Assembly: GCA_043228905.1 (NCBI GenBank)
Contig: JBHGNT010000016.1
Location: 11,408,001-11,472,000 of the forward strand
Direction of reading: 5' to 3'
Length of the DNA: 64,000 bases
DNA from: Azolla caroliniana
Taxonomy: Eukaryota; Plantae; Polypodiophyta
Part shown: in pieces, positions 865 to 63,000 of the stretch
How positions within the stretch are numbered: the stretch's first letter is position 1
Layout: each line of letters starts with the position of its first letter
The notes under the pieces: model-generated
Told to the model about the DNA's origin: nothing
The model's input: the letters and a program-made list of their open reading frames with translations, nothing else
The model's database searches: none
Position numbers and translations under genes: made by a program

Positions 865-1588
865 GCGTGAGGGCATTCTCAATGGTGAAGTTGAACTACA
901 GTACGTTCCGACCAATCGGTAGGTGGCCGACATCTTCACCACCACTCTTGGACTCAACATGTTGCGACAATTCTTGGGCATGCTTGGGTTACAACAACTC
1001 GATGTGCCGAACTTGAGGGGCGGAGTTGAGGGGGAGACAGTTGAAAGAGCTGATAAAGCGGATGGGAGTAGCGCCACGGACAAGAGGGATCTAGCCGAAG
1101 CCAAGGGGAGAGTTGAAGTAGAAGATGAGTAGGAGACAACCGATTCAGATAAAGGTTATGATTTGGATGAGCCAAATTAGGACGACACCGAATGGGCGAG
1201 TAGGCAGTCGAAGCCAATATCAAAGTGGGAGAACTGATGGATCGTGGGGCGTCAAAGTCGTAGAGGTAAGAAGTGTTGAATATGGAATCAACCACAACCG
1301 ATTCTCACTCACAAATAAAATGAAAGAACAGAAAATGAATACACAAAACAAGAAAACATAAGGTACAGAGACGCAAGTATTTAACGTGTAAAGCCTGAAA
1401 TGAGAAAAACCACAAGAACCCACAGACTCCAAACAGAATCACTATATATATGGAGAGGAATAAAAGGAGACTCAGAGGCAACAACCTCAAGCTCGTCTTT
1501 GTCTAATAGATGGCGGCGGCGTTACAACTGTCACTTTGCCTCTCTCTTACTCTCTTAGTTACAGTGGCAACAACCAACAGTAATTATA

Positions 1589-37143: not shown

Positions 37144-40100
37144 TGTTGTCCGCCGGAATAGTAACCGACGGACAAGAGCGTAGGAATAAGAAATAATATA
37201 AGATCATAATGCATGTAATAGTTCACGCAGGAAGCAGGAACGACTAAATAGACCCTGCGTATATAAAGGATAGAAAACCTCTGATAGAGGGAGCGTGTAA
37301 TTTTGGGAATGTAAAGAAGCATATCGTAATAGAATTCTATCTTCTCTGAAAATCTGTGTATAGCTACGGCTAATCTACTGTGTGTTTGGAATACCTGAGA
37401 GTGTAAGAACGTGAGTGTGTAACCACTGATAAGGAGTCTGTTGTAGCCGTCTCCCTTATACGTTGTTAGGTTATTCTCCTATGTATTATGCATAGACACC
37501 ACCATTCGTTGTTTCTCAATCACTTGGAGGTCTAGGTCGAAGGACTGACTGCAGACCGTGTTCCTAATCGGTAACACTTTTGGCACGCTTGGTGATCTAT
37601 GTCTTCTCACAGACGAACAACAACGAATGGATGTTTAGCTGCAGACACCCTAGAGAACCAACACGACAAGACCGACCAATCACAAGGTTCATCACACGCC
37701 AGGCACGGGAACGCGCACGACAAAAGCCTCGCCTCAGCGACCTCAGTACTACCTGTCGTGATTACAAGGGTGTTGAGAGACAAGCTCAACATTTGTGCGT
37801 AATATGATGTGTAACCAATGCGTAGACTAGGTGCACAAAACCGGTACGCAGACCGATGCGTAGAAAGGCCGTATCGGTGCATAGACCGAAAGGCCGTTAG
37901 GAAGATATTCCTCATAAGGAATAGTTTTGGGAGTAAGTGTCGAGGCTCATTTATGAGCAATCAAGTACTGTTCGTACTTGTGTTAGCCCATTGTCAGGGC
38001 TTGTATAAAAGTGCTCACTGAGCACATCCTATGTACAGATTGAGTATTATTTTTGAATTTAAGTTCTTGTGTTACTCTCTCTGTCTCTCCCGTGCGTACT
38101 GTGCAAACCTAAGCTTTCCATTAAACCTACGTTTTCTGTTGTTCGGTTTTCCTATATTGCTTCTGCACGCCATTCTTTTCATGGTATCAGAGCGCGAGGG
38201 TTGAGAACCTCTGCAGCTGACTTTGCTTGAAGGAAAAACCAATGAATCAACTGAGGGCCAAGCGGAAAAGAAGGCAGTAGGAGAAGCGCCAACACCGCGA
38301 CAGCAAGGGACCTATGAAGGGCCGTGGGAGCAGACAAGCCGGCCAGAAGGGTTGAACAGGCCGAGGAGCGCGAGCGAGCCGTGGAGCTAGGAGAAGTCGG
38401 AGCGTAGGTCCGGCAAAATAGGCGGAACCTCAAGTTGAGCTTGAGGGGGAGTGTTGAGAGACAAGCTCAACATTTGTGCGTAATACGATGCATAACCAGT
38501 GCGTAGACTGGGTGCACAAAACCGGTACGCAGACCGGTGCGTAGAAAGGCCGTATCGGTGCGTAGACTGAAAGGCCGTTAGAAAGATATTCCTCGTAAGG
38601 AATAGTTTTGGGAGTAAGTGTCGAGGCTCATTTATGAGCAATCAAGTACTGTTCGTACTTGTGTTAGCCCATTGTCAGGGCTTGTATAAAAGTGCTCACT
38701 GAGCACATCCTATGTACAGATTGAGTATTATTTTTGAATTTAAGTTCTTGTGTTACTCTCTCTGTCTCTCCCGTGCGTACTGTGCAAACCTAAGCTTTCC
38801 ATTAAACCTACGTTTTCTGTTGTTCGGTTTTCCTATATTGCTTCTGCACGCCATTCTTTTCATGGTATCAGAGCGCGAGGGTTGAGAACCTCTGCAGCTG
38901 ACTTTGCTTGAAGGAAAAACCAATGAAGAAGAACAAGAAAACCGATGGACAGAGGAATGGCTAGCTCGCTTCCAACGGAGAAGCTCGACAGAACCAACTA
39001 CGCATCTTGGTCCTACAAGATGCACCAATACCTGCTCGGACATGGTTACTGGAGCTATGTCGATGGAGCAAATGACACAGCACCCGATTTGACACACAAA
39101 GACTTCCCAGCGTGGGAACAATCGGCGAGCAGAGTGCTATACTGCTTCGTGTCTTGTGTGGGTGAATAGCTGCTAAGCTACGTCCGGGATGCAAAAACGC
39201 TGAAGGGTGCATGGGAAAATCTAAAGAAGATTTTCGCCGCGAGCACCACAGCTAGGAAGCTTCTACTTCGACAGGAGTTGAGCAACCTACGACAACGTGA
39301 TTTGTCGGTGGCTAACTATACCTCGAGGATTAAGGACATATGCAACTCCTTAGCTTCCATTGATGTGAACATCGAGGAAAGCGAGATGGTCCAGGTCTGT
39401 CTCGGAGGTTTGGCGTCAAAGTTCGAGGCGTTCCGAACTGCAGTGTGTACCCGGGAGAATACGTCGTCCTTTTTCGACTTACAGTCAATGCTCCTGGTAG
39501 AGGAGAACCACACGGTGCGTCGACGAGCACGCACACCGACAACAAGATGTTGTACACGGAGGGAGAAAGGCCCCATGGTCGTGGCGGATGAGGCGAGTTG
39601 GTACGCAATGGAAGCGGCCGACGGGATCAAGGAAGAACGCACCGAAGTGATGTCGACAGCAATTCCGGACCCTCCAGAAACAGGGGGAGTCGAGGCGACG
39701 AGAACCAGAAAGGGAAATCCGCCACGGAATGCTGGTATTGTGGCAAGAAAGGCCACAGGGAGAGCGAGTGCTGGAAGAAGCGCGCCGAGTCGGAGAGGTC
39801 TGGCTCCGGACATACCGACAAAGGAAATCGGCAGCGATCGCACTATGCCGAAGGATCCGGAAAAGCCGGAAAAGGGTCAGTCTTCGTGACGAGACACAAA
39901 GCAAACTCAATGAAACAGTCTGCCCCGAAATCAGACGAGGTGTGGTATGTCGACTCCGGCGCGTCAAACCACATGATGTGCCACAAGGAGTGGTTCTCAT
40001 ACCTTGAGAAACCGACGCAACCAGGAGTAGTCACAACTGGAGACGACACTCTGCATCCGATCGCAAATGTCGGTGAAGTTCCCTTGAGCCATGTCGGGCA

Positions 40101-40171
40101 GAAAGGGAAACTTATGAACGTGTTACACATCCCGACCATCACGAAGAATCTGGTGTCGGTCGGGCAGATTG

Positions 40172-41698
40172 TGACGGGAACTGGTCGTTCCTTATGCTCA
40201 ACGCTCGGCCACAACCGAGCTTAGAATCATACATAGAAAACGGGAACTAAATGCACGACACAAAGGAGAGAAAAGGTACATAGGATGTTTACATGGAAAA
40301 CCCAAACTAAGGGAAAAACCACGGCAGCCCACAGGCTGCAAACTATCACTATGTTGGAATGTACAAACAGTGAGTTCACGGAGGCAACGACCTCGTGCTC
40401 ACGATCTTCGCCACAGGCGGCGGTTACAACAGAGGCAACGACCTCTTTCTCTCTCTGTACACTGTTACGCTGTCGTGCCTTTCGGCTCCGGATCGTTTGT
40501 GTGAGTCGGGTGGGAACCACCGGGGTTTTGGACTAGGAGAAAGAAAAATACAAATAAGGCTAGTAAAGAATAGGTATAAAGAGTTATAAGATAAGAATCT
40601 CGTGAATCCCACGAGTTTAGTATATTTAGTCGATATTTAGGTAGTAAGAGAGAATTATTTTAGCAAATTCGTGAATCCCACGAATATTTTAGATTGATTG
40701 ATCATTATAGAAAAATAATCAACAAAAACTACAATGTGCTCCCCATCCTTATATAGTGATGGGAGAGACTAAGCATAACTACATGCTTTTTCTAATATGT
40801 TCATGCACACTAAATGTGTATGTGATGCTTTTCTAATCCTTGCTTTTATTTGCTAAATATAGTGCTCATGCACGCTAGATGTGCATGAGTCATTTTTTAG
40901 TTGCTTGCGTTTTTCTATAAAATATTCACGCACTCTAAAAATGCACGATTTACCTTTTAATAAAGGTAGGTGCAAATAAAGCACTTATAGTTATTAAATC
41001 TATTTGTAGAACACTAAAGATAAGGTAGCATAATGGTAAAGTACAAGGTTCAAATCTTGCCCTATGCACGTGATAAATATCTTGATATTCTTATTTTATT
41101 TATTTATATGTAATTAAATCGGTTATATTATTTTTACTTATTCACGTAGTGTACGAAATACACTACGACAACGCACTCTAATCTCGTGCAAAACAGGAAT
41201 GACAACAACAGTAACTAAAAGTTTGCCCTAAGTCAGAAACATATTTACGACTTTTCGGCTATTTACAAATATAGCCTCGATGGACTCTTAGAAACATATT
41301 TACGAATATGTCTCTTCATCCGGTTCTCACCAGGTCTGCACCATCCGGCTCTCCGTAGCCGGGTACTCCTCATCCGGTTCTCACCGGGTCTGCACCATCC
41401 GGCTCTCCGTAGCCGGGTATTCCTCATCCGGTTCTCACCGGGTCTGCACCATCTGGCTCTCCGTAGCCGGGTACTCCTCATCTGGATCTCACCGGGTCTG
41501 CACCATCCAGCTCTCCGTAGCCGGGTACTCTTCATCCGGATCTCACTGGGTCTGCACCATCCGTCTCTCCGTAGCCGGGTACTCCTCATCCGGTTCTCAC
41601 CGGGTCTCCACCATCCGGCTCTCCGTAGCCGAGCACTTCTCATCCGGTTTCGGCACTGTTCTTCTCTCTTCCCATTCGGAGGGACCTGTCTCCCAACA
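40172..41698 (-). mobile_element. Solo LTR, family X, with about 6 copies of the 54-bp repeat
   Basis: TSD gattg/gatcg. It interrupts the copia protease region (VGQIV|D). Confidence 0.9.
40471..41170 (-). mobile_element. Solo LTR of the tRNA-Trp-primed family
   Basis: Reverse complement of 10786-11508. 4-bp TSD acgc. Confidence 0.92.
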
Positions 41699-44600
41699 GA
41701 TCGTCGACTAGGGGATGCAGGTTTGGTTTACGCATCTTGGGTACTTCATTGAGGAAGAAGGCCGTATTATTGCGCAAGGGCGCAGAGATGGGAGGATGTT
41801 TATCCTCGACTCTACTGACGGTGGCACCAATGTTCGCGAAGGGACAAAAAGTCGAGTCGGACATCAACTTATGGCACAAACGGATAGGCCATGTCAACTA
41901 CCAGCGGCTTCAAGACCTGCAATCGAAACAAGTGGTGTTTGGATTGCCCAAATTCAGTGGCCGGAAGGCACAGATTTGAGAAGCCTGCCAGCTTGGGAAG
42001 CAACACCGACTTCCTTTCCCAAACGAGCGTAATCGGAGCCGGAACAAGCTAGACTTGATACACTCTGATGTGTGGGGGCCGGCACAAAACGTTTTTCTTG
42101 GCAGGAGCCGATATTTTGTCTCCTTCATCGACGACTACACGCGGCACACGTGGATCTACCTCATTGAGAGGAAAAGCGAAGTCTTCGACTGTTTCCGGGA
42201 CCTCAAAGGGTTCGTGGAAACGGAAACAGGAAGAAAGATCAAGTGTCTGCGGTCAGATGGCGGAAAAGAATACTTTTCCGGTCAATTCAACGGTTATCTA
42301 CAACAGATGGGAATTCAACGCGAATTTAGTTGTAGATACACGCCAGAGCAAAATGGCGTGGCCGAGAGAAAAAATCGGTCGGTTGTGGAAGCTGCACGCG
42401 CAATGCTGGAGGAGAAGAGCTTGCCCAAGTTCTATTGGGCTGAGGCGGTAAGAACTGCGGTATACATCCAAAACCGGATCAGAGAAAAAGTGTCGGCGCA
42501 TGAGCTATACTTTGGAACAAAACCAAACTTGCGACATTTACGAGTTTTCAGTAGCATTGCGTATGTACATGTGCCGAAGGAGAAAAGGAGGAAGTTGGGA
42601 GCAAAAGCCGAGAAGTGTATCTTGGTCGGCTATTCCGACGAGCAGAAGGGTTATAAGTGCTATAACCCGCGTACCAAACAACTGCATATGAGCCGCGACG
42701 TTGTGTTTAATGAGTCCGCGTCCTGGTACTTGCCTCCGACTCCGGATCTCACCTCCAATCCGAGTTCTGACGATGAGGACAGCGAGGCCGAGGTGCCTCC
42801 GGCTGAGCGTGAAATCGGGATCCCCGAAGAGAGTCCGATTTCATTTCGGTTAAGTGGACCGAATGGACGACTGAGTCGGTACGACTAGTCCGATGAAGAG
42901 CCGACGAGTAGTGGAGACTCGGCTGTGCATTCCCCGCGTAGGAAGCCGAGGAGACGGCTTACCCGCGAAGAAAAAGGGAAGAAGAAGATGTCGGATTCCG
43001 GCACGGATAGGAACAAGTCAGACGGACGCGAGTCCGACTCCGAGGGAAGCGGCGACGGGCCTTCAGGAACGAAGTCCGCATCGGCCGAGAAGACCTCGAC
43101 ATCGGCAAATGACCGATTACGCCGATCTACCCGCCAAAAGAACCCAGTTGTGCGGTTTGGATACAACGAGTACATGGCGCATCACTCTGCGTACATGACC
43201 CGTGTAGTGGAAGTACGTGAGCCGAGGAGCTACGCAGAAGCGGCGAAGGACGCGAATTGGCGCGCCGCGGTGGAGGAAGAGATGCACGCACCGAAGGGTG
43301 TGACGCACCGAAGGACCTGGTTGACGCACCGAAGGGTGTGAAGCCGATCGGATGTAGGTGGGTGTACAAGGTCAAGTACGACACCGACGGCTCGGTCAAC
43401 CGATACAAGGCCCGGTTAGTGGCAAAAGGCTACGCGCAAAAACACGGCATCGACTACGATGAGACGTTTGCGCCGGTCGCAAAGATGACGACCGTCTGTG
43501 TTTTGCTCGCAGTAGCCGCAACCAAGGGGTGGCACCTACATCAGATGGATGTAAAGAATGCATTCCTGCAAGGTTAGTTTGAGGACCAAGTGTACATGGT
43601 ACAACCCCCCGGATTTCACTCTGGACTGAACATGTCGGCAATATGCCGATTGAAGAAGTCCCTTTACGGACTGAAGCAAGCACCGCGTGCCTGGAATGCA
43701 AAAATCACGCATCGGCTGTGTCGGATGGGCTTTGCGACGTCAAAATCAGACTCCTCGTTGTTCATTCGGAAAGGTCGACTCGGGCCGGTCAGTATTTTAC
43801 TCTATGTTGATGACTTGGTCATCACCGGTGCCGACCTAGGTGAGATCAACCGCGTGAAGCTCCAACTTGCAGCATCATTCGACATGAAGGATCTGGGGGA
43901 CCTTCATTACTTCCTCAGGATCGAAGTGATCCGCACCCCTGAAGGCATAATAATCAACCAACGTCATTACGCGCTGAATATGTTCTTCAAATTCGGGATG
44001 GCAGACTGTAAGTCCTTCTCAACTCCTCTAGACAGAACCGTCAAGCTTCGCCCTAGTTCCGACAAGGTTTGCGATCCAACAAGGTTTCGAGAAGTTGTTG
44101 GAAGCCTTATCTACTTGACCATCACCCGACCCGATCTCAGTTATCCGGTCGGGGTGATCAGTCAGTTCATGGCGCGCCCTACCGAGGAGCACCTTGAGTG
44201 TGCGCAACGCGTACTGCGGTACATAAGCGGCACTAAGGACCAAAGACTGCTATATCGGGCTGATACAGCCCTGCAGTTGGTCGGCTACACTGATGTCGAC
44301 TAGACCGGCAATGTTGCCGATCGCCGATCCATGTCCGGACATGCGTTCTCTCTTGGGAGTGCCGCGATAGCGTGGAGTAGCAAGAAGCAGCCGACAGTTG
44401 CACTGTCGAGCACCGCAGCCGAGTATAGAGGAGCGGCTATCGCAACATTCGAAGCCATATGGTTGAAGCGGCTACTTAAGGATTTGCAGGTGGAGGTGTC
44501 TGATCCAATGACGATCTACTGCGACAACCTCAGCAGCATCCAACTCGCGAAGAACCCCGTCTTTCACGCACGGACCAAGCACATTGAGGTGCACTACCAT

Positions 44601-47600
44601 TTTGTCCGTGAGCGTGTCCTTTCTGGTGAAGTCGAACTTCAATATGTTTCGATGGATCGGCAAACCGCCGACATCTTCACCAAGCCTCTTGGTCTGGACA
44701 AGTTGCGGCAATTTTCGGGTGCGTTTGGGTTGCGTCACTTCGACGTGCCGAATTTGAGGGGGAGAAACATCCCAGATGACCACGAAAGGGAGCAGGAAAG
44801 GAGCGGAAAAGACCTTGGATCGGCTAAAGAAGCCGAGAGCGGATCCGCGGAAGAGTCCGAAAGCGGACACAAGGGGAGCAGCCGAAAGAAAGAGCCAAAG
44901 CCAACCAACCAGGCATGGGGGAGGCGAGAAGACCGGAGACGAGTTGGAGACAGCTAACTCGAACGAGAGCGAAAACCGATCAGAGGTAGCCGAGTCGGTT
45001 CGTATTTTTTGATTCAGATACACTGAATCAACTGAGGGCCAAGCGGAAAAGAAGGCAGTAGGAGAAGCGCCAACACCGCGACAGCAAGGGACCTATGAAG
45101 GGCCGTGGGAGCAGACAAGCCGGCCAGAAGGGTTGAACAGGCCGAGGAGCGCGAGCGAGCCGTGGAGCTAGGAGAAGTCGGAGCGTAGGTCCGGCAAAAT
45201 AGGCGGAACCTCAAGTTGAGCTTGAGGGGGAGTGTTGAGAGACAAGCTCAACATTTGTGCGTAATACGATGCATAACCAGTGCGTAGACTGGGTGCACAA
45301 AACCGGTACGCAGACCGGTGCGTAGAAAGGCCGTATCGGTGAGTAGACTGAAAGGCCGTTAGAAAGATATTCCTCGTAAGGAATAGTTTTGGGAGTAAGT
45401 GTCGAGGCTCATTTATGAGCAGTCAAGTACTGTCAGTACTTGTGTCAGCCCATTGTTAGGGCTTGTATAAAAGTGCTCACTGACCACATCCTATGTACAG
45501 ATTGAGTATTATTTTTAAATTTAAGTTCTTGTGTTACTCTCTCTATCTCTCTCCTGCGTACTGTGCAAACCTAAGCTTTCCATTAAACCTGCGTTTTCTG
45601 TTGTTCGGTTTTCCTATATTGCTTCCGCACGCCATTCTTTTCAAATGGTGATTCTTCACTCTCCAAATACCTCGACGATATGCGGGGAGCACGCTCACCA
45701 TAGCAACACTGTGGTCTTTCCCGACCCGCCGTAGCCCCCAGCATGGCCTTTGCCTATCCCCGCTTTAACGGCGAAACCGATGCCACAACCCATATTCGCA
45801 TGTTCCTCAATGTCTGGAATGCGAACCACATGGCGCAGAGCCTTTCGGAGGTGGTAGCGCAGAGCCTTTCGGAGGTGACAGAGTTCGGGTTAACATTGGA
45901 TGGGCGAGTGGCATTTTGGCATTCACAGATGGATTTGCCAGCAATCATGACCTTTGATCAACTGCAGTCCGCTTTCTTGCGGTTCTTCCATCGGAGGGTT
46001 TCACAACACAAAATCCTCGGACAGTTCTACACGATTAAGCAATTGCCGACCGAGACAATCGCAGACTTCAGCTTACGTTTCCAAAATTTACGGCGGAAAC
46101 TGGAACAGAGCCCCGCGGAGGACGAGGCTAGAGAGACATTCCTGGCAGCATTACACCGACCCATACGGACAACGCTCAACAACAATAGCGTGAAAGGGGA
46201 AATGACGGATATGTTCATTGAACGAGCATTACAGCTCGAGTTGGACGAGGAGGAGGAAAGGTTTTCTATGTCGTCTTTACGACAAGCATTACCCCAGGAC
46301 GAGGAACTCAGGGCATTCCGCAGTGGAGTGCAACATGCAAATCCATTGCCCAATCTGCCACTCGAAGGCTCACACAGTCGAACAATGCGAATACAATATG
46401 TTGAACAGAGCCACTCCCACAGTACGCAGCATGGACACAAAACTTCCCCCACGCCGTACTGAATAAAGGAGGCAAGAAGACTGACCACGGTATGTGGATC
46501 GCAACTCACGTGACGACTGACACCACCGAAATCGCCGGAATCACAACGATTCCGAGGAAGACAAACTAGAGGATGAGGATTACCCTGAACCTCCGAGTTA
46601 TGCTAAAGGGGGCTGGCGCTATGAGAATCACCGGCCGACAAACAAACGCGGCGGCTTCAATGGTTATCCTGGGAAGCCGCGACAATATCGAGACCACCAG
46701 CGATACGACGAAAGCTCGGGAGATGAGCGACACCAAGAACCACGCTGGGACCAACAGCAACCACCGCGTGCGTTCCGACAAACGCAAGCGGACTGTGAGG
46801 AGCAAGTCGCACCAAGGGATTGGCACACACCACCAGGAGCCGAAAAGGGCGAATCAAGCATCCATTGTTTTGTTTGTCAGCAGCCTGGACATTATGCCAC
46901 GCAATGCCCAACACGGAACGGCAAGGGGCTTGCTGTCAATACGATTACGGCGGAAGTGCAACAAGTCACGACACACCAACAAACAAAAACGGATGATTGG
47001 GCTGTGCAAGATGAGATACAACGACAAGCCCAGGCATGGGTGGAAAAAGCAAATGCGACCAATACAAAGCGCATGCAGAAGGAGTTCGCGAATATGTGGG
47101 AGCGAGCGTAGGACGAAGGACCGGTGCCAGACCCCATTTGGCAGGCATTAGTGGGCTTCGAGATAACATTAACCATGGAGAAGCTGCTGCAGCTAGTCCC
47201 ACGCTTCCGCCAGACCATGGAAGAACGGGTGACGGGCATACTCGGGGTGAGCGTCGCTACAAACCTTACAGATGTTAGCGACGGGCTGCCTGTTGTGGAT
47301 CACAACAACCCGACTATTACATTGATATTACACAGACAGGAAATTCCCGGATGCGTAATCGATGGCGGCTCGGGCATTAATGCAATCAGTGTGAAAACTT
47401 GCAAGCAATTAGGCATTTCAGAATGGGAGGCTTGCCCATTCTAGCTCCGAATGGCAGATACCCGCTCAGTACGACCATTGGGGTTAATTCTCAAGATAGG
47501 CATTATCGTGGGCGGACATCGCATCAACATCTCGGCGGTCGTCCTTGCCTTGGACGCCCCAGGAGCGTACCTAGTGCTTCTGGGAAGACCATGGCTTCGG

Positions 47601-49807: not shown

Positions 49808-52800
49808 TAGACTACCACAGATTACTTGGAATCAGTAAGGGTTCCAACAAGCCATATGGATGGTGTCGTGGCATCTTTGCTCGGCAGCAAGCATCACAAG
49901 TCCGAACGTAGTCATCGACAAAACGTCGCATATGGGGCCACCAAAAGGATCGTTGAACTAGATCCAACGTCTTAGTGCTACCGAAATGTCCCGCCATATG
50001 GGTGTCGTGACAACTTTGGACGATTTGAAGGCGACAGGAACAATCAGGGACATATACAAGCTTTTTAAAGAATAACAAACCATCATGATATTCGAATTGT
50101 CGGTAGTCCATACCTGGTTGTTGAGACTGGGAACAGGATGCCTGAGAGGTATCAATGTGTGCCAGAATGTCTTGAGCAAAATTGTTCGTCTTCAAGTTCG
50201 CACGTATGGTGTCGGTAATCTGGGAATCCATTGGGGTGTGAAAAATCTGCGTTGTCTGCAATCGTGTTGGTCCCAAGATTACTTGCTTTTGATTATCGAA
50301 CGTTGGATCACCAGGCCGAGGTGCAAGATATGAACGTCGTGATAGTGCATCTGCCTTTCCTTACTGCTTCCCCGGTCGATATGCGATTTTGAAATCAAAA
50401 CGTGTGAGGAATTGAGCCCACTAGCTTGCCGTCGATTTAGCACACGAGCGTTTTGGAAATAAGAAAAATTCTTGTGATCACTGAAGACGATGACCTGATG
50501 TGGAGAGCCCTCCAAAAAGTGCCGCCATTGCACAAATGAATCCACGATGGCTAATAACTCCTTATCATGTATTTCGTAGTTGATTTCCACAACATCGAAT
50601 TTGCGCGAATGGAAGGCCACAGGATGTAACTCTTCTTTATCTCCTTGTTGAGAAAGGATGCTACCGAGGGCGAAATCTGATGCGTCTGTTGTCCGCCGGA
50701 ATTGTAACCGACGGACAAGAGCGTAGGAATAGGAAATAGGATAAGATTGTAACGCATGTAACGGTTCACACGGGAAGCGTGAACGGCTAAAAGACCCTGC
50801 GTATATAAAGGGCAGAAAACCTCTGATAGAGGTAGCGTGTAATTTTGGAATGTACAGAAGCGTATCGTAATAGAAATCTATCTTCTCTGATATTTGTGTA
50901 TAGCTACGGCTAATCTACTGTGTCTCTGTAACACCTGAGAGTGTAGAAGTAAGCCGGTTGTAGCCGTCTCCCTTATACGCTGCTAGGTTACGGAGCACAT
51001 TCCCCTACGTATTACGCACAAACGCTACCGTTCGTTGTCACACAGTCACTTGGAGGTCTAGGTCGAAGGACTGACCATAGACCGTGTTCCTAATCGGTAA
51101 CACTTTTGGCACGCTTGGTGATCTATGTCTTCTCACGGACGAACAACAACGAATGGATGTTTAGCCGTAGACGCCCCAGAGAACCAACACGACCAGACGG
51201 GCCAATCACAAGGTCCATCACATGCCAGGCGGAGGACCGCGCAAGGCAGAAGCCTCGACTCAGCGACCTCAACGCTACCTATTGTAATCACAAAGGTGAT
51301 TTTCCGCTCTTCAAATACCTCGACGATACGCGGGGAGCACGCTCACCACAGCAGCACTGTGGTCTTTCCCGACCTGTCGTAGCCCCCAGCATGGCCTTTG
51401 CCTATCCCCGCTTTAACGGCGAAACCGACACCGCAACTCATATTCGCATGTTCCTCGATGTCTGGAATGCAAACCACATGGCGTAGAGCCTTTCTGAGGC
51501 GGTAGCGCACCAGTCCAAAATGACAAAGTTCGGGTTAACATTGGATGGGCGAGCGGCATTTTGGCATTCACAGATGGATTTGCCAACAATCACGACCTTC
51601 GACCAGCTGCAGTCCGCCTTTTTGCGGTCCTTCCATCGGAGGGTTCCACAACGAGAAATCCTCGGACAGTTCTACACAATTAAGCAGCGGCCGACTGAGT
51701 AGATCGCAGACTTCAACTTCCATTTCCAAAATTTACGGCGGAAACTAGATAGGAGCCCCACGGAGGATGAGGCTCGGGAGACATTTCTAGCGGCCTTACG
51801 TTGACCCATACGGACAACGCTCAACAACAATAGCGTGAAAGGGGAAATAGCGGATATGGTCATTGAACGAGCACTACAGCTCAAGCTAGACGACGAAGAG
51901 GAAAGGTTTTCTATATCCTCATTACGACAAGCGTTACCTCAGGACGAGGAACGACATTTTCGTCACGCAATCCAATGCACGATTTGCTTGAACTCGGGGC
52001 ATTCCGCAGTGGAGTGCAACATGCAAATCCACTGCCCAATCTGCCACTCGAAGGCTCACACAGTCGAACAGTGCGAATACAATATGCTGAACAGAGCCGC
52101 TCCCACAATACGCAGCATGGACACACAGCGTCCCCCACACCGTACTGAACAAAGGAGGCAAGAAGACCGACCACGGTATGTGGATCGCAACCCACGTGAC
52201 GACCGACACTACCTGAATCGCCAAAATCACAACGATACCGAGGCAGACAAGCCAAAGGATGATGACTACCGTGGTCCCCCGAGTTATGCTAAAGGGGGTC
52301 GGCACTATGAGAATCACCGACCGATGAACAAACGTGGTGGCTTCAATGGTTATCGTGGGAAGCAGCGGCAATATCGAGACCATCGGCGATATGACGAAGG
52401 CTCGGGCGATGAGCGACACCAAGAACCGTGCCGGGACCAATAACAACCACCGCGTACGCTCCGACAAACGAAGCCAAACCGTGAGGAGCAAGTCGCACCA
52501 GGGGATTGGCACACACCACCAGGAGCCGAGAAGGGCGAATTGAGCATCCATTGTTTTGTTTGTCAGCATCCCGGACATTATGCCACGCAATGCCCAGTAC
52601 GCAAGGGCAAGGGGCCCGCCGTCAATACGATTACAGCGGAAGTCCAACAAGCCATGACACGCCAGCAAACTAAAACGGCTGATTGGGCCGCGTAGGATGA
52701 GATACAACGACAAGCCCAAGCATGGCTTGAAAAAGCAAACGCGACAAATACAGAGCGCATGCGGAAGGAGTCCGCGAATACAATGGAGCAAGTGGAGGAC

Positions 52801-55800
52801 GAAGGACCTGCCCCGGACCCCATTTGGCAAGCACTGGCGGGCTGCGAGATAACATTAGCCATGGAGAAGCTATTGCAACTAGTCCCACGCTTCCGCCAGA
52901 CCATGGAAGAACGGGTAATGGGCATACCCGCGGTGAGCGTCGCTACGAACCTCACGGACGTTGGCGACGGACCGTCTGTAGTGGATCACCACAACCCGAC
53001 GATTACATTGATATTACACGGACAGGAAATCCTAGGATGTGTAATCGATGGTGGCTCGGGCGTTAATGTAATTAGCGCGAAAACATGCGAGCAGTTAGGC
53101 ATTTCAGAATGGGAGGCTTGCCCATTCTGGCTTCGTATGGCAAATACCTACTTAATACGACCATTGGGGTTGACACGCAAGATAGGCATTATCGTGGGAG
53201 GACATCGTAGTCCTCACCCTGGACGCCCCAGGGGCGTACCCTGTGCTGCTGAGCAGACCGTGGCTTTGGGTAGCAAATATCAAGCAGAGCTGGTCACACA
53301 AGTGTATCAGTTTTCGACACGGACGCACCAATGTTCACGTACCTACGAAGGGAAGCACGACACAATCCAAGGGTATAACACCATTATAAGCGGAAGATAT
53401 AAATATGTTGGTTGGGGTGGAGGATGCAGAATAAGAGGCATACCTAGATGAGCACCCTTGGATTATTCCGCTATTCGAAATCGACGTCATCGCAACCGTG
53501 GCAGAATATGCCACGACCACTATTCTCCACGACGAGGCTTATGAACCAAATCCGGATTCAATATTGGAACTAAGCAGAGCACGGGCAGCATTCGAGAGGG
53601 AAATGGAAATTTCACGGCGAGTCACCGCCTCCGCCCTGGAAGAAGTAAACGTGGGTACGGCGTCAGAACCCCGTTTTCTCTCCATCGCAAAGGAATTAAG
53701 GCCGGACCAGAGAGACGCGATGATCGAACTACTCAAGAAATATAAAGATGTGTTTCCGTGGGCTCATGAGGACATGAAGGGGTTAGATCCGAAGTTCTAT
53801 CAACATAAGATCAATTTAGCAACCAGCGCAAAACTCGTTCAGCAACGCTGCTACCGTATGAACCCGAACTACGCGACCCGCGTAAAAGAAGAAATTGACA
53901 AACTCCTAAAAACGGAATTCATACGGCCAGTTAAACAAGCCACATGGTTAAGCCGATAGTAGTCGATCCAAAGAAAAACGGTAGAATACATGTTTGCATG
54001 GATTACCGAAAATTAAACGACGTAACCATTACGAACGCATTCCCTTTACCATTCACCGATAGCGTCCTGGATGCCGTCGCAGGACATGACATGTATAGTT
54101 TTTTAGATGGCTTCAGTGGGTATAACCAGGTACGCATGCATCCTGATGACCAAGAGAAGACGGTATTTGTCACGGATTGGGGAGTCTATGTGGCCGTCGT
54201 CATGATGTTCGGGCTAAAGACGGCGTCGACGACATTTCAACGAACAACTACGAAGATCTTGGGGAATATATTCTGGCGTTCATGCAAGTTTTTTTAGACG
54301 ACTTTGCGGTATATGGGAAAACAATCGACCATTTTATGCATCTGCAACTGTGCCTGGAATGTTCCCGCACCACACGCTTAAGCCTGAACCCCGCAAAATG
54401 TGCCTTCGGTGTGACCAACAAGACTCTCCTAGGCCATATAGTCAGCAAGGTTGGAATAGCGGTCGATCCGAACAAGATCTCCACGATTACGCAAGCCAAA
54501 ACTCCGACAAACGCGAAATCACTCAGCCGGTTTTTAGGACAAATACGATGGCATAGTCGGATGATATGATACTTGGCAGACTTCGCCACGCCGTTACATC
54601 TTGTCGTGCATCGGACTCCCTTCCAATGGACCACAACGGAGGACAAGGCCTATGAGGCGCTTAAGATAATGCTCACACAGGCACCCGTCGTACAACCACC
54701 AGTTTGGGCGAAGCCATTCCACATATTCGTAGACGCCTTGGACATAGCAATAGGAAGTGTGTTAATGCAACTCACCGAACCAAATTGGTACCAGCCAGTG
54801 TACTACGCTAGTCGCAAATTATCAACAGCAGAGCGTAACTATTCCACAACGGAGCGAGAGGTGCTAGGGATGATCTATAGCATCAATAAATTACGACATT
54901 ATCTGTTGGGGAGGAAATTCATGTTCCACGTGGATCATTCGGCACTGTTGTATTTGGTGGAGAAACAAGCACTGACGGGGAAATTGGTGCGATGGATGCT
55001 GCTGCTTCAAGAATTCGATTTTGTAATTCAGCACCGCCTAGGGACGCAACACGCAGTGGCAGATTTTTTGAGCAGACTCGATAATGGAGAAACAGTACAG
55101 AAGGACGACGACGACTTTCCGGACGCCAACATTCTGCGGGTCGCCGCACTAGCAGAAAGAACTGAATTGACCTTTCCGGACTAGTGGCTTATGGAAAGGA
55201 CATACTTTTTTACTACGGAACTGCCTCCACCACAATTACGCACGGACGAGAAGAAACAATTAGTCGTCCGAAGTCGTAACTTCTGCCTGGTAGAAGGAAT
55301 TTTATATCACAAAGGAAGTGATGGCCTTTGGCGACGCGGGGTACGTCAGGATGAGAAAGAAGCAGTCTTACGGGAGGTTCACTGCGGCACAGTAGGCGGG
55401 CCTATGGTGGCCGACTACACAGAAGGACGCATACAAGTATTGCAGAAACTGTGATTTGTGTCAACGGATGGGCCAGCCCACGGAGGGCGCAAGGATGCCA
55501 CACCAACCCGTATTACCGTTAGACCCCTTCCAGAAGTGGGGATTGGATTTTGTGGGCCCCTTCACACCGGCGGTAGCCCATACGGGCAATAAATACATAT
55601 TGGTAGCCACGGATTATTGCACCAAGTGGGTAGAAGCAAAGGCACTACGAGAAAATATGGCGGCTGTCACAGCGAGATTCCTTTACGAGCACATCTGGTG
55701 TCAGTTCGGTTGTCCGATTGAGCTTATCAGTGACCAGGGGAGCCACTTTCTCAATACGGTTGTTCGAGAACTAACACATCATTACGCCGTAGTCCACAAG

Positions 55801-56734
55801 AAGAGTACACCATATTATCCACAAGCGAATGGGTTAGCGGAATCCACCAACAAGACATTACAGACCACCTTAAAGAAAATCGTCAATGAAAATAGAACGG
55901 ACTGGGATACCAAATTACAGAGTGCGTTATGGGCGTACAGAACCAGCTACAAAACAAGCATACAACCAACACCGTTTCGGCTAGCGTTTGGGCTGGAGGC
56001 CGTGATGCCGGTGGAGTTTCAAATACCCAGTTTACGCATTCAGGTACGGAACCGACTATCAGAAGCCAAGTCGGAGGAGGTATGGCTACACTAGCTACTC
56101 GAACTCGGCGAAAACTCGTACACAGCATGGTTATGTTGGAGCAGGAACAACGACAGCGTAAAGCGTTTGTGGATCAACATCGGAACGCACGGGAAGAGGA
56201 GTTCGCGGTCGGTCGAGCGGTACTGGTTTTCCAAACCTGCATGGGCCATATGCCAAGGAAGTTATGATTCCCTTGGAAAAGCCCGTACTGGATAATTGTT
56301 CCAACTAGGCACGTTGGCCGGGGAAGTCTTACGACAAAAGGTGAATGGGTTCCGCCTTAAACCTTACCTGGGCCCTACGCCACCTAACCCATTCACCGCC
56401 GGACAGGACAAAGCCGAAGAACCCGCGGCGTAAGTGGATGGCCCCACTTGTATCATAATGTAAAAATAGGTTGTATGTAACCGTTACGAAAAAAGAGAAA
56501 GAAAAAAGAGAAGATAACGACGATATTAAAAAAGGACTGAATGCATGCACAGACTCCTTGATCAAGAACACACGGCACCACGATGGTTGACTGCCCAATG
56601 AACCCTAGGCCACAAAAAGAAGGAAATAGAAGATCTTCTACACAACACAGCAACCCACCTCCTAACTCTAAGGGCTCCCCTCCCTCGCCTTCTCCTCCAT
56701 CCTATCACTGAGCTCAAGCCCACCGCAACTACCA

Positions 56735-59700
56735 ATGTCCTCCCCACGAGCCCACTCTGGCTATGCCGATCTTTATCTCTACCGCCTTATGTCGATGGCT
56801 CATGGAGAAACGCCTAGATGGGTACATCAGGGTCGTAGAGGCACCTCCACACCCGGATGCGTTGGACATCGCTAGAAAGCTCAATATCGACACGGTCACC
56901 AACTCTTCCATCCGGAAAAAGTTGAACCTGTCATCACTAGGTGAGAGGCATTTCGAAATCCCTCCTGCAGAGTCACTGCAGAGATACTTCGGCCCATATT
57001 CCTCCTCCGCCACAGCCTATAGAACGAAGCAGATCCCGGGTCCCTTTTTCCGTGAAATCGCCAAGTTCCTATTAGAGGTTGGATGCGTACACGTCAACGC
57101 ATATGGGATGCCCAAGTAGAAGGTGGGTATCATTATTGATACCTTTGAAGGGCGTGCGGTCGACTGGGGAGTCATCACGGGGCCGGCGTTAAGGGAAGGC
57201 ATGCATGCGTTGTCGCGAAGATTCGCGCGTGCGTGTGCTACTCGAGCGACCACCGGGGTCTTGGACTGGGGAGGATGTTTGCAGAATTATCGAAGAGATG
57301 ACGATCAATGTAAGATTAGATGAAATTGGTTTACTTGAGAAGAAGAAAGATTGTACACTTGAGAAGTAGAAAAATATGAAGAAGATAAAGACAAATATAA
57401 TTATATTGATGATAATGGTGTTGGTGATATCACATATTGAGCCCCCCTTACACAAGCTCAAGTAGAGGCTTTTATAGGTCTTTCCATGCTTGTGACATGC
57501 ACAAAACCATGGGCTAAAACCATGGTTTTGTGCACACGGTTTTGCTTATGTCATGCACAAACCATGGGTTTAGAACCATGGTTTTCTAATGGTTGTTTCA
57601 TCTATAATTCATATATGAAAAGTAAATACATAAAATCTACACTATATGATAGTTGTCCTAGTGGTAAGGAAATTATCTTGTATCTTAGAGGTGCAAGGTT
57701 CAAACCTTGCTTGTGCCCCTCTGTATGAACTCAAGTGCCACTAGGCCTTGGGTTTATTTGCTAAGTGCATGTGCAATGTTGCACATCCTTGGTTTATTCG
57801 TCTCACTCGGTTTCACACCGTAGCCGAAAATTGTCACGACAACGTATCAAGGATGCAAGAAGCTCAAGTCGATCATACAACAGTACCTGACAGTGTTATT
57901 CCACCCCCCCCCCCCCCCCCGAGGCCTGCCGACACTGCAGCCCAGCAGACCCACGCCTCCGCCTCGATCCGCGAAGCATAGGTTAGCGGAGTTAGCTGCC
58001 ACAACCCGCCCAACTAGACACACGGACAACGCCGGAAGAGCAAGCGGCGTGCTCCGCGGAAGTGGCACCAGAGCCAGACGTCGAACCACGGCAGGATAGC
58101 CCCAGACCGAAACGGCGGAGGTTGGACAGGAAAGATGGGCGGGGATTAGTTAAAGACGTCCCCACGGCGGTAGAGACAACGACCGAAGGCGATGGTATCC
58201 CGGACATGGCCCATGAGTTTAGCGCCCTCTTATATAGTTCGGAACCTCTTTTGAGCTCATGGAATTACTGGCAACACAACAGATAAAGGCCTCACAACGA
58301 ATGGTTGAGGAGCACGCGGACCGCTAGATGATCGAGCGCGCCCTAACACAAACGACGAAAAGCGACGATTGAGGACTGGCTAGCCAGGGTCGGCAGACAG
58401 AGGAACGCCGGTGTACACCGAGTGGCAAAAAGCCATTAAACACGGCCCTAGTCAAAGTCCATAGGGAACTGGCAAAGGTCAGCACGGGCGCCAAGGAGAT
58501 GGCCATTAAAAATAAAAATGTCTGGAAGAAGGTGAAACTGACCCAAGCCGAGCTGCAAAAAGCCAACGAACACATCGCGGAGTTGGAAACTAACGCGACT
58601 ATGACGTAGCAGGCAACTCCACCACCAAACCACACCATCAACGCCTTGAAGGAAGAGGTTGAGGCTCAGACCGCCATTGCTTCCAAAGCAAAAAGGGTCG
58701 TACAACTAGCGGAATCAGAAATTGACCACCTTCGCGCTGAACTTCGCCAATCCTCAGACAGGGAAAAGGATATCTGGGCCAACGACTGGAAGGCAGTAAA
58801 AACCCTTGAAAAGAAACTCGTTGCGGAGATAGCACAGCACACCCGGACAAAAGAAGAAAACGCTCAATTACGGGAGGAAGCGAAGAAATCGGAGGCGGCA
58901 ATCGCGGGACTCCAGACCTTATTGGAGAAAAAGAAGGTATGGTTCGACAAGCAGCTGGTGGGCGAACAGGAAAGAAGGCATCAGCTCGAAATCCGCCTAA
59001 ACAATGAAATGGAGAAATTAGAAGAACTCCATGCGAAGGAATCCCAGCCGTGGGCGGGCATGAAGAGCACGTACGAAGAAGCGGCTGCAGTTAGTAAGCA
59101 AGAAATTGCAAACCTCAAGAAGTCGGTGGAAGAAGCACGTAACCACTGCCAGGCCATCACAGACAATGTGTGTATCCTTCTACAAACGAATCGGGAGAGG
59201 TTCACAGTGCAATTGAAAACAGCGCTAGACAAAGGATGGATGGCGTCGACAACCCAAGCGGCGGAATTGCACGCATATCGTGCGGACTGGGAGAACCAGC
59301 GAAAAGACGGTCGAGGCTTCTATCAACTCAATGAGGAGAGCATTGCGGCAGTACGCGAGGACCTAGCGTAGGACTATCACGCGCTAGCGGACCAGCATTC
59401 CGAAGAACTCGCGCAACTATTAGACGATTTTTGTGAAAGCCAGGAGGATCTGTTTCAACAGATCACACAAGCCGGCAGCACGCGAACAAATGAGGAATCT
59501 GTCGCGACACCAATTCCGGACACTGCTGAAGAAGAGGAACCTCAGGCCAGGTCACCAGAAATTACAACTACGGTGAACAGCGCAGACAACGAGCGGGGCC
59601 CCCACATTACCAGACAGCGAAACCACTACCCAAGAGGAACCCCATCTACCGAAGCATACGCTATCGGCCGACCACACGAAGAACATTGTGGACCAAGCAG

Positions 59701-60002
59701 AACCGCAACCTCACTCCCCAAAGCGTACAATGACAGTTGACACCATGGAGCGAGTGACGGAGGAGACGGAGGAGACGGAGCTGCGACCGACCACGAGCCT
59801 GCTGATGGCTGAGCCCAACCGCCTAGCCCAAGAAGAGCCCATAGAACCCGGACCGCCCACACAGGACGATCGCGACACCAGGAGAAGCCCTTCCGCCCAA
59901 ACAGGGAAACCACACCACGGGGCACCTACGAGCCCTATGTCGTCCCCGGACGTGGCCACCGTAGCCGAGCCAAACATCCCGACCATTTTGGAAGAAGATT
60001 AA
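56735..60002 (+). pseudogene. Extra 3' ORF of the Athila-like element: globular N-domain, long coiled coil, acidic/Pro-rich tail
   Basis: Sense ORF pieces 56763-57119, 57123-57210, 58062-58286, 58646-59371 and 59688-60002. E/K/A-rich heptad-like composition. Confidence 0.6.
57211..57841 (-). mobile_element. Solo LTR distantly related to the Trp-primed family
   Basis: tgtcg...cgaca ends. 4-bp TSD gcgt/acgt. Shares ccaccggggtcttggact with the family's U5. Confidence 0.8.
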
Positions 60003-63000
60003 CGGGATGGGTCCGACGTGCCATGGCACTGTCCCACAAGCGTGCCAGGTGTTGTCTACTAGAACAGTAACCGACGAACAAGAGCGCAAGAATAGGAAAT
60101 AGTGTAACATTGTAACACATGTAACGGTTCACGTGGGAAGCGTGAACGGGTAAAAGACCCTGCATATATAAAGGGCAGAAAACCTCTAATAGAGGTAGTG
60201 TGTAATTTTGGAATGTAAAGAAGCGTATCATAATAGAAATCTATCTTCTCTGATATCTATGTATAGCTACGGCTAATCTACTATGTGTCTGTAACACCTG
60301 AGAGTGTAGAAGTAAGCAACGGTGAGTGTATAACCATTGTTAAGGAGCTCGGTTGTAGCCGTCTCCCTTATACGCTGCTAGGTTACAGAGCACATTCCCC
60401 TATGTATTACGCACAGACGCTACCGTTCGTTGTCACACAGTCACTTGGAGGTCTAGGTCGAAGGACTGACCGTAGACCATGTTCCTAATCGGTAACAGCG
60501 TTGGCCTCCATGATGAATGGTTTGCTTGTATCCACATGAGCTAGAATAGGTGTTGATGTAAAGGCTTTCTTAAGATGCCGAAAAGCCATGTCCGCTTCAT
60601 TGGACCAAAGAAATGCTTGTCCCTTTTTCGTAAGTTGTGTGAGAGGTAAAATAATCTTCGAGTAATCCTGTATAAACTTGCGGTAGAAGTTAGCAAAACC
60701 TAGAAAACATTGTACATCCCATACTGACCGTGGAATTTGCCACTCTAGCACAGTTTGGACTTTAGCTAGATCCATGGAGATGCCCTTTGAGGAGATAACG
60801 TAGCCTAGAAATTCCACTTGCTTGCAGTAAAAGCTACATTTTTCTAGCTTGGCATAAAGACCATTCTTGCGGAGTCGGTTTAGTACTAATAGTACATGAG
60901 AATCATGCTCTTCCGGGGTCTTCGAATAAATCAATAGATCATCCAGATAGATGATGAAATAGATATCCATGGCATACCTATTCCGGATGGTGACCTTATT
61001 TAAGCCGCGGTAATCAACGACGAGACGAAGTGAGCCATCTTTCTTCTTGACAAAGAAGATGGATGCTCCGGCCGGAGATTTCAAATGACGAATAAACCTG
61101 CTTGCCAAGTTCTCCTCTATGTAAGCTCGAAGGACTTCTAACTCGGTGGGTGACAAGTTGTAGATTGGTCCCCATGGTGGCTCTACTCCTGGTTGTAAAT
61201 CGTAGGGACAATCATAGGGACGATGATGAGAAAGAGTGCCGGCTTTTACCTTGTCAAATACGTCGGCATAAGGATGATATTTCGTCGGAAGTTGCACTAA
61301 GGATTCCTCCTTAATATTGTTGGAAGGATGTACTGATATGGCAAATAGGAACATTGCCTACTTGTGTCCTTCTTCGCGTAGTTGACGTAGTGAAATGGTT
61401 GAAACGCGATGAGTAGATTCTTGGGGTTGTCAATATCGGACTTCTCTTGTTCTCCAATCTATGTCTGGATTATGTAGTTCAAACCAAGGTAATCCCAGGA
61501 CAATGGGATGCTCTGGACTACTAATTATATTAAATGATACTACACACGCAAAACAACCTAAGACAACCTGCATGGGTTTTGACTCTTCTACAATATTCCT
61601 GGAAGCAATGGGACGACCATCAATGACTACTACATATGCGGGGCAAGGAAGTTTTCTTAAGGATATCTGAGAAGCTTGGGCAAAATTTCGATCCATGAAA
61701 CAGGAATTGGCTCTGGAATCTAAAAGTGCTAGGACTTGTACTGGGGGAGTACTTTTAGTACTAACCATGACTTGGGCTAGGAACACATTGCTAACTTGCT
61801 TGGAGGGAATGGAACCACTAATGGGCTGTACAGATCTAGGGTTGTCCAACCAAACGGCTCTTATTTTGGCTGGACTCAATCGTTTTTAACTCTTCATCTA
61901 ATTGACTAAGGATTTCAAGTTTGTTTGAGATACTTGGGTTATTAGTACTATTAATACTATCAGACACTCCCAAGGGAAGAATTGACTCGGGTTTAGTACA
62001 GGTTACGATTTGATTTACTTGTCTTCTTGGCCTATGGGGACAATTGATTGCGATATGCCCTAGTCCACCGCAATAAAGACATAATCGATTTGCACGTCGT
62101 CGTTGCTTTTCTTCTTCCGATAACGGGCCATGTTGACGCATGGTATCGATCTCCATCGGTGTCGGAGTATTTGCTTGAGGTATGTCTCGTGCAAACGGTT
62201 TAGCCGCGACTGAGGCGTAAGCGGGCTCCGGCCTAGAGCATGGTATCTATAATTGACGTTCCGAACGTCGTTCGAAAAGGCGGTTGTCACATCGGACCGC
62301 TCGACTGATTGCCTCCATAAGAGACTTTGGTTCTTCGAGGAATGTTAGAAGTAGATCTTTGACATTGTTTCGCAGGCCATAGCGAAACTGCTCCATTAGT
62401 GCTTGATCATCCCAGGGGATATTTGAAGCTAGTAGACGGAAATCCGCCCCGTAGGCAGAGGAGGCTAGACGATCGCCTTGACGCAATCGTCGGATTTTGT
62501 TGATCGTTGTCCAGATGTTGTTTGTATCTCCAAAGCAAGCTTTAAACTCACTAATAAAGTCTTCAAAGTTATTCAGTAAGGGTGATTGTTTTTCCAGAAG
62601 CAGAGCAAACCATGCCAAGGCTAAGCCGCTAAGCAACGTGCCTATTAGGCCAACTCAGGATGCATCAGTGGGTTATCGAGAAGGATGCATTTGAATGACT
62701 AAGTGTACCTGATTGAGGAATCCCCTAAATTGCGATTGCGTTCCATCAAATTTCACAGGAAGTCCAATCTTGGGCTCTTTATGAAATCCGTGGGGACTTG
62801 ATCCTTGTTGTTGCAACGCTGCTTCAAGTTGTTGCACACATAACGCTAACTCCCCATGTTGTTGTTGCAACTCCCCATGTTGTTGCTACGTTTGCTGTTT
62901 TTCTAGGGCGATTTGTTGAAGATGCCCTAACAAGCGTTGGTTTTCTTGTTCCAAGGCAACAAAATTTTCTTTTAGACATTGTAGCTCAGAGAAAATGGAT

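Follow-up and report, generated by a model that had tools for sequence, protein, structure and literature searches.

A conserved tRNA-like site in place of the polypurine tract in a clade of Ty3/gypsy retrotransposons represented in Azolla caroliniana

Results

Architecture of the element

A 64,000-nt stretch of the Azolla caroliniana genome (contig JBHGNT010000016.1, positions 11,408,001 to 11,472,000, forward strand; the whole stretch is called the window below and its first letter is position 1) harbours a 9.8-kb Ty3/gypsy retrotransposon with long terminal repeats (LTRs) at 50687-60497. Directly before the 3' LTR this element has no polypurine tract (PPT), but what appears to be a copy of the 3' arm of a tRNA-Arg, split by a small hairpin. 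The site is real, conserved and placed as a functional signal. The element is of known kind but has a plus-strand signal for which we found no description; in our preferred reading, plus-strand synthesis would start there from a second host tRNA. The features of the element and of a sister copy are as follows.

50682-50686, plus strand: left target-site duplication, 4 of 5 nt equal to the right copy
50687-51102, plus strand: 5' LTR, 416 nt, TG...CA, identical to the 3' LTR in 386 of 416 aligned columns
51107-51120, plus strand: primer-binding site (PBS), 4 nt past the LTR, complementary over 14 nt to a 3' end of tRNA-Arg type
51154-56432 (approximate ends), plus strand: gag-pol with stops and frameshifts, comprising gag, zinc knuckle, protease, reverse transcriptase (RT), RNase H and integrase
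53935-54566, 54570-55181 and 55396-56091, plus strand: Pfam domains RVT_1, RT_RNaseH and rve, respectively, in broken open reading frames (ORFs)
56763-60002, plus strand: extra sense ORF past integrase, broken in the window, no Pfam family above the cut-off
57211-57841, no strand assigned: later, solo-LTR-like insertion within the extra ORF, TG...CA ends, 4-nt near-duplication flanks
60000-60002, plus strand: stop codon upstream of the site, followed by 47 nt (60003-60049) to the 3' LTR
60007-60016, plus strand: copy of the 5' strand of the tRNA T-stem and of the T-loop (tRNA positions 49-58), from alignment with tRNA genes
60017-60030, plus strand: hairpin inserted between tRNA positions 58 and 59, with a 4-bp stem, a 4-nt loop and one unpaired base per side
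60031-60037, plus strand: copy of tRNA positions 59-65, after which position 66 is absent, from alignment with tRNA genes
60038-60047, plus strand: inverted PBS, copied from tRNA positions 67-76 (acceptor 3' strand, discriminator, CCA)
60048-60049, plus strand: 2-nt spacer before the 3' LTR, constant in length in all four families compared, with differing letters
60050-60497, plus strand: 3' LTR, 448 nt, TG...CA
60498-60502, plus strand: right target-site duplication, 5 nt, one mismatch to the left copy
37144-37594, plus strand: 5' LTR (37144-37576) of a sister element with an identical PBS (37581); the 3' end of that element is outside the window

Gag and the zinc knuckle were identified with Pfam in the sister copy (45704-47108), and the complete order gag-protease-RT-RNase H-integrase is seen in the relatives P0004 and P0005. 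In relative L002 the extra ORF, of which the window holds a broken homologue, is intact (1381-4893, ~1,170 codons); it gave no match to Athila ORF1 in Pfam. Its C-terminal half is coiled-coil-like, and an acidic C-terminal motif is common to the window, L002, L020 and L023.

The site before the 3' LTR

Positions 60007-60047 correspond to positions 49-76 of tRNA-Arg minus C66, with a hairpin of 13-14 nt inserted after A58, and the tRNA-like stretch ends 2 nt short of the 3' LTR. A preliminary description of this DNA had already noted that the 47 nt between the last stop codon and the 3' LTR lack a purine run, which we confirm, the longest run in the last 15 nt being 3. It had also noted an inverted copy of the PBS beside the LTR, and the likeness to tRNA reaches further upstream than was seen then, to 60007. 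The reverse complement of 60037-60047 equals the PBS at 51107 and at 37581 over 11 nt. The 10-mer 60038-60047 occurs three times in the window (the site and, inverted, the two PBSs) vs 0.11 times expected, a count reached in none of 100 shuffles.

A PPT beside the 3' LTR is absent from all four families (the window element and the related L002, L020 and L023), the longest purine run being 3 in each, and the 300 nt upstream are free of conserved purine runs of 8 nt or longer. The window has a run of 9 purines 60 nt before the LTR; it was rejected as a distant PPT, being the end of the extra ORF and missing at the corresponding place in the other three families.

The stem of the inserted hairpin pairs 60018-60021 with 60026-60029. 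The preliminary description had pointed to a hairpin here, and it is present, but it is not part of the minimum-energy fold when the 47 nt of the window copy are folded as lone sense RNA, the stability of which does not exceed that of shuffled sequences (z +0.62). The case for it comes from covariation across families: 14 of 16 stem cells are paired in the four families and two of the four pairs are altered on both sides, a covariation score reached by 12 of 500 shuffles (n=4 sequences, with the L023 stem offset by one column). In L002, L020 and L023, and in host contigs making up 9-16% of the depth, the loop (60022-60025 in the window) is CAAG-like on the plus strand and CTTG-like on the minus strand. 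As loops of the CUUG/CTTG type have unusual stability, this hints slightly at the minus strand as the one that folds.

An Rfam scan of 59700-60200 gave no match at expectation values up to 10, and the site is therefore not a whole tRNA. A role as a B-box of RNA polymerase III was set aside, as the conserved T of this motif is changed in the window and in L002.

Conservation in host contigs and related families

Contigs from four public runs (at most three samples with two organism labels, one of them possibly the window's own source) were aligned to 59940-60180 at 80% likeness, and 952, 1,070, 966 and 617 contigs, respectively, aligned over the site region. In run X1 the summed depth, which is not to be equated with copy number, was 42,417 at 60030-60038 vs 3,435 at 59967-59975 and 2,610 at 60066-60074. 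Many contigs diverge from the window sequence at 60005 and 60056, and the site is common to subfamilies that differ on either side of it. Among the variants listed, changes cluster at the hairpin loop (60022, 60024) and at 60003, 60007 and 60039, with a few other positions at 7-12%. Position 60007 is A in 68-88% of the depth. At 60039 the window copy carries the minority letter, G making up 82-87% of the summed contig depth in the four runs, and the PBS position facing it (51115) is T in 84-94%. The exact 11-nt match to the PBS is therefore a property of the window copy; the usual relation is 10 Watson-Crick pairs and one G.U.

With a 19-sequence integrase alignment 80 metagenome loci were obtained, the best 80 of 559 confirmed, from a scan that covered 5 of 64 parts. 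The window falls within a clade of 24 rows with a Shimodaira-Hasegawa-like approximate likelihood ratio (SH-aLRT) support of 99 in a quick, midpoint-rooted tree from which L023 and L020, with matches of less than 150 residues, were left out. In a tree of RT, RNase H and integrase the window, L002, L020 and L023 belong to a clade of 11 rows with support 100; the window row is partly misaligned over frameshifts there (branch 0.74) and its identities in that alignment were not used. L002, L020 and L023 are the clade loci that reach the 3' junction, their integrases being 79, 72 and 84% identical to that of the window, and all three have the tRNA-like site. Of the remaining clade loci, some stop ~1.9 kb or less from integrase or extend over upstream parts alone, and L015 is interrupted. 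The contigs of L002 and L020 each link the 3' junction to the PBS across one LTR, as collapsed assemblies do. The preliminary description had named two outcomes that would speak against a functional site, a normal PPT in other copies or a match that is not conserved; neither was found in the host contigs or in the three informative families.

The LTRs of the four families are unalignable, with no match in five of six pairs and a single 16-nt match in the sixth. The site is positioned as a plus-strand primer would be, 2 nt from the LTR in 4/4 families; by contrast, the spacer before the PBS varies (4, 5 or 7 nt) and the upstream stop codon is 4 to ~94 nt away.

Outside the clade, the controls L014, L035 and L045 have normal PPTs with purine runs of 11, 7 and 8, and their PBSs are Asp-type by comparison with the available part of the ATHILAfinder preprint (10.64898/2026.03.20.713144). 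L055 probably has a PPT as well and is marked so in the tree of RT, RNase H and integrase, but was kept out of the control count owing to its ambiguous LTR boundary; the purine tract that it appears to retain would date the loss of the PPT to after the split from the sister clade. The sister-clade elements L036 (3437) and L055 (5060) have the other PBS type found in L020. Named relatives are from Adiantum (up to ~60%), Riccia (~50%) and pine; by these matches the host would probably be a non-seed plant. A search of viral contigs with the integrase returned no relative, and the junction motif had no match in viral and prokaryote contigs.

tRNA identity and predicted pairing

The element-derived motif without the hairpin retrieved 23 loci from phage and prokaryote contigs, which ARAGORN called as tRNA-Arg (21) and tRNA-Asp (1), with one left uncalled. 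The distance from T-stem to CCA is 8 nt in all 23 loci vs 7 in the elements. The assignment to tRNA-Arg, which is supported only through these bacterial and phage genes, is thus a putative one. The PBSs of the window and of L002 match the end of the stand-in tRNA for 14 and 13 nt, respectively, including the base that is missing from the internal copy; this match is independent evidence on the host tRNA. The PBS of L020 is of another type, and its complement led to 27 loci of phage tRNA genes (Arg 17, Asp 2, uncalled 8). With ARAGORN, no tRNA gene was found in the window or in the 41 of 80 metagenome loci scanned.

Compared with the tRNA of L090, the four families differ at 4, 1, 1 and 2 of 27 tRNA-matching positions, L020 having an inserted base in addition. 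Seven of these eight substitutions are G>A or T>C, which are kept as G.U wobbles on the minus strand. When the stand-in tRNA is cofolded with the minus strand, the predicted pairing takes in 27 of its 28 nt in three families (the window, L002, L023) and 25 in L020. The energies given here come from RNA:RNA parameters that ignore modified bases, and from bacterial tRNAs chosen with the element motif. The cofold gain is -27 to -35 kcal/mol with the L090 tRNA and -21 to -28 with that of L094, vs -7 to -12 with the RNA strand. Duplex energies are -44 to -52 for the clade sites vs -16 to -20 for the PPT controls. The distal 10-nt contact alone contributes -14 to -18, a value reached by at most 0.13% of 3,000 random 15-mers from the window. 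On the window PBS the stand-in tRNA forms 14 bp (-27 to -28 kcal/mol), and on that of L002 it reaches -29.0 (L090) or -22.7 (L094).

Classification

Domain order, two TG...CA LTRs, a target-site duplication (4/5 nt) and a tRNA-type PBS beside the 5' LTR identify the element as Ty3/gypsy. Neither an archaeal RNase H nor a chromodomain was matched by Pfam in the window ORFs or in the intact relatives P0004 and P0005. Tat/Ogre/Retand, defined by an archaeal-type RNase H domain, is thereby excluded, and so is Phygy/Selgy, which has a 4-bp target-site duplication, no extra ORF and a Trp or Ala PBS. Moss Tat-like elements without archaeal RNase H, as far as the accessible text goes, are described without extra ORFs, unlike this clade (PMC4408406).

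The term "Athila-like" used in the preliminary description is a loose fit. With Athila/OTA the element shares its large size, a 5-bp target-site duplication, an extra 3' ORF, the lack of a chromodomain and of an archaeal RNase H, and an AT-rich spacer before the PBS (available parts of PMC6317226, PMC4408406 and the ATHILAfinder preprint). However, Athila PBSs are mainly Asp, Asn or Ala, with a conserved PPT at the 3' junction, as opposed to an Arg-type PBS and no PPT here (PMC6317226 Additional file 5, ATHILAfinder preprint). In a midpoint-rooted tree built without the REXdb references, the clade groups with fern, liverwort and other proteins, apart from the seed-plant group with Asp PBSs. 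We describe the element as OTA-like, a non-chromovirus that lacks archaeal RNase H, and do not file it as Athila.

Genomic context

The LTRs of the window copy are 92.8% identical, and the copy looks old and is broken. They differ by a 32-nt indel and in the first 40 nt, which in the 5' LTR are closer to the LTR of the sister element than to the 3' LTR; the window copy may be old or recombinant. The element sits within a minus-strand gypsy that in turn interrupts the sister element, and at least four nesting layers can be seen at 37144-64000: the sister gypsy, copia elements (37770-45643), the minus-strand gypsy from 48172 and the element described here. The insertion at 57211-57841, which splits the extra ORF, is 631 nt long with TG...CA and 5-nt terminal inverted ends, and its flanks have the NCGN form that the available text of PMC6317226 gives for Phygy target sites. 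Tandem arrays with periods of 126, 54 and 48 nt lie at 26860-27753, 41258-41689 and 9992-10231, respectively.

Discussion

In the accessible parts of the literature, LTR retrotransposons and retroviruses are as a rule taken to prime their second strand from a PPT (PMC5371799, PMC10085805, PMC10886601). Based on our findings we propose that in this clade the PPT is replaced by a hairpin-split copy of the tRNA-Arg 3' arm, the complement of which on minus-strand DNA would bind a second host tRNA that primes the plus strand, a proposal that in our estimate has an even chance of being right. We are equally divided on the wider idea that a Ty3/gypsy clade of non-seed plants uses host tRNAs for both strands, in at least one family two tRNA species, by means of an extruded DNA hairpin and a three-way junction. 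That a tRNA could prime both strands through a PBS-like site on the minus strand was already suggested in the preliminary description; it is the reading we favour, drawn from sequence and folding.

Folding with the stand-in tRNA predicts pairing of the last 10 nt of the tRNA, a bulged C66 and 7 further paired nt; past the hairpin, which is extruded from the DNA, the T-loop and the 5' strand of the T-stem are predicted to pair as well, resulting in a three-way junction. RNase H would first have to clear the genomic RNA from the site, after which RT would extend the CCA end of the tRNA over the 2-nt spacer into U3. Subsequent stripping of the tRNA by RNase H, as happens at the minus-strand end, would leave integrase with a 2-nt extension. 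We speculate that the bulge, 11 nt from the primer end, and the junction, 18 nt from it, may protect the tRNA from early RNase H cleavage.

Few changes at the tRNA positions, next to unalignable LTRs and a compensated hairpin, fit pairing with an outside partner that does not change. Priming by a second tRNA is favoured as it accounts for the position of the site, the fixed 2-nt spacer, the invariant tRNA-facing bases beside a covarying hairpin and the direction of the substitutions. By analogy, minus-strand priming in Ty1 and Ty3 may serve as precedent for a split tRNA site with T-arm contacts (available text of PMC3592414, PMC5371799).

Several points weigh against this reading. The host tRNA-Arg is represented by bacterial stand-ins that were picked with the element motif, so the good fit arises partly by construction, and T-stem complementarity together with the universal T-loop accounts for much of the fit in the upstream half. 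The energies rest on RNA:RNA parameters without modified bases, and A58 is normally methylated and then unable to pair. L020 has a T at the position of C75, which puts a mismatch just one base short of where the primer ends. There is only a weak wobble bias, since 16 of the 27 positions are G or T and 7 of 8 has P ~0.1 under transitions only; methylation-driven decay likewise produces G>A. Moreover, RNase H should attack a long hybrid of tRNA and DNA, and the site is already occupied by genomic RNA. Finally, only four families were compared, two of them (L002, L020) via contigs joined across one LTR.

A third option, beyond the two of the preliminary description, is that the element's own tRNA-like RNA survives RNase H on the RNA:DNA hybrid and is then extended as a PPT would be, having been cut at its CCA-like end, or directly behind it, with the specificity by which RT removes tRNA primers. 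We consider it a serious, though clearly less probable, candidate. It needs neither a second tRNA nor a displacement step and keeps the logic of the PPT (PMC5371799, as far as available). On the RNA strand of L002, L020 and L023 a long hairpin is possible that leaves a 10-nt tail beside the LTR, the change at C75 in L020 is compatible with such a primer, and the acidic residues of the window RNase H look intact. A perfect RNA:DNA hybrid, however, gives no reason for 27 positions to stay tRNA-like. The T-stem shows no compensation in the four families, while two of four pairs in the adjoining hairpin are altered on both sides, and two G>A changes (60007 and one in L023) break T-stem pairs on the RNA strand, though both are helix-terminal. 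The sense RNA of the window copy, moreover, folds no better than shuffled sequences.

It is improbable, in our view, that the site binds a tRNA or a 3' tRNA fragment for another purpose, e.g. RT pausing, guiding of RNase H or as a silencing decoy, with the plus strand starting from a nearby RNA remnant. Such binding would explain the minus-strand complementarity without extension of the tRNA and fits the terminal mismatch of L020, and PBS sequences are targeted by 3' tRNA fragments (available text of PMC7472051). Nevertheless, a decoy does not need a fixed 2-nt distance to U3, and the 300 nt upstream hold no conserved run of 8 or more purines in the four families.

Slightly less probable still is pairing of the internal copy with the element's own PBS, put forward in the preliminary description as a self-encoded minus-strand primer or a 5'-3' circularisation signal, the plus strand being primed otherwise. 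The copy does form 11-bp duplexes with the PBS (-22.9 kcal/mol in the window, -26.6 in L002), PBS position 10 and its partner change in concert between these two, and there is precedent in the 5'-3' pairing of Ty1 CYC5/CYC3 (PMC3592414) and in Tf1 self-priming (PMC10085805), both as given in the accessible text. The concerted change is equally explained if both ends follow a host tRNA isoform, and the idea is weakened by L020, which keeps the site although its PBS, of another type, forms a duplex of only -7.4 kcal/mol with the internal copy (in a single contig joined across the LTR). It is further weakened by the longer match of the PBS to the tRNA end, 13-14 nt vs 11 nt for the internal copy, and it leaves the fixed 2-nt spacing and the loss of the PPT unexplained. 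A functionless one-off inversion or chance match, which the age and broken state of the window copy might suggest, is refuted by conservation in host contigs and in 3/3 informative families with unalignable LTRs, chance being excluded by the 10-mer counts, and we give it next to no credence.

Known systems offer parts of this arrangement; the papers are cited from their accessible portions throughout. Ty3 and retroviruses likewise have LTRs, a PBS past the 5' LTR, RT-RNase H-integrase and a primer signal directly before U3, but there the signal is a PPT, whereas here it is a non-purine copy of a tRNA 3' arm and the proposed primer a host tRNA or a structured mimic (PMC5371799). The Ty3 plus strand is re-primed repeatedly at the PPT, and the inherited PBS does not take over the sequence of the tRNA (PMC5371799). 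The wobble T that persists at PBS position 9 is in keeping with this, whichever of the two leading models holds, provided that the host tRNA carries a G there.

Split tRNA sites are found as the PBS with boxes 0 and 1 of Ty1, the 5'/3' bipartite PBS of Ty3 and a second PBS near the 3' end of Drosophila Gypsy (PMC3592414, PMC5371799, PMC1635307). They resemble the site described here in an acceptor contact of ~10 nt with separate T-arm contacts and in a second tRNA-related site near the 3' end of the genome; in contrast to it, they are complementary to the tRNA on plus RNA, are used to prime the minus strand and occur in elements that also have a PPT. Our site has the same sense as the tRNA and can thus be bound on the minus strand only; together with the weak cofold with the RNA strand, this rules out the bipartite-PBS type of Ty3 and Gypsy.

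In the self-priming elements Tf1, Tcn1 and TAR an 11-nt PBS complement is also encoded by the element, but there it forms the RNA 5' end within the LTR, in elements that retain their PPT; here it precedes the 3' LTR and the PBS still fits a tRNA (PMC6317226, PMC10085805). Tf1-type self-priming was rejected, the 10-mer being absent from both LTRs (exact matches only). Cer7 of C. elegans, which did not turn up in our literature search, is said to involve a whole tRNA, proposed as minus-strand primer, without replacement of the PPT. In Helenus a tRNA-like sequence acts as a promoter inside the LTR, and both the PBS and the PPT are retained (PMC10886601), and cqgypsy_1 has tandem tRNA copies at the PBS, the PPT not being replaced (PMC3286476).

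On the whole, the literature gives three types of primer for the minus strand, the PPT as primer for the plus strand, and tRNA sites that are split on the plus RNA. No PPT replaced by a copy of a tRNA was described in the work on LTR element priming covered by our search, most subscription papers lying outside it. The PBS string had no match in five supplements of PMC6317226, of which Additional files 1 and 3, outside that search, may hold elements of the clade; short sequence strings searched in papers matched only unrelated primers.

The two leading mechanisms predict different primer sequences, with C66 and modified bases present if a tRNA is the primer and absent if it is the element's own RNA. 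Should the primer be a tRNA, priming would be symmetric on both strands, making the element doubly dependent on host tRNA, and the site would provide a short oligonucleotide system for studying how RNase H tells primers and waste RNA apart. Annotation software in which a PPT is scored or demanded would find too few members of the lineage. Whichever of the two mechanisms holds, a high-copy lineage of several families without a PPT implies that the PPT rule is not obligatory.

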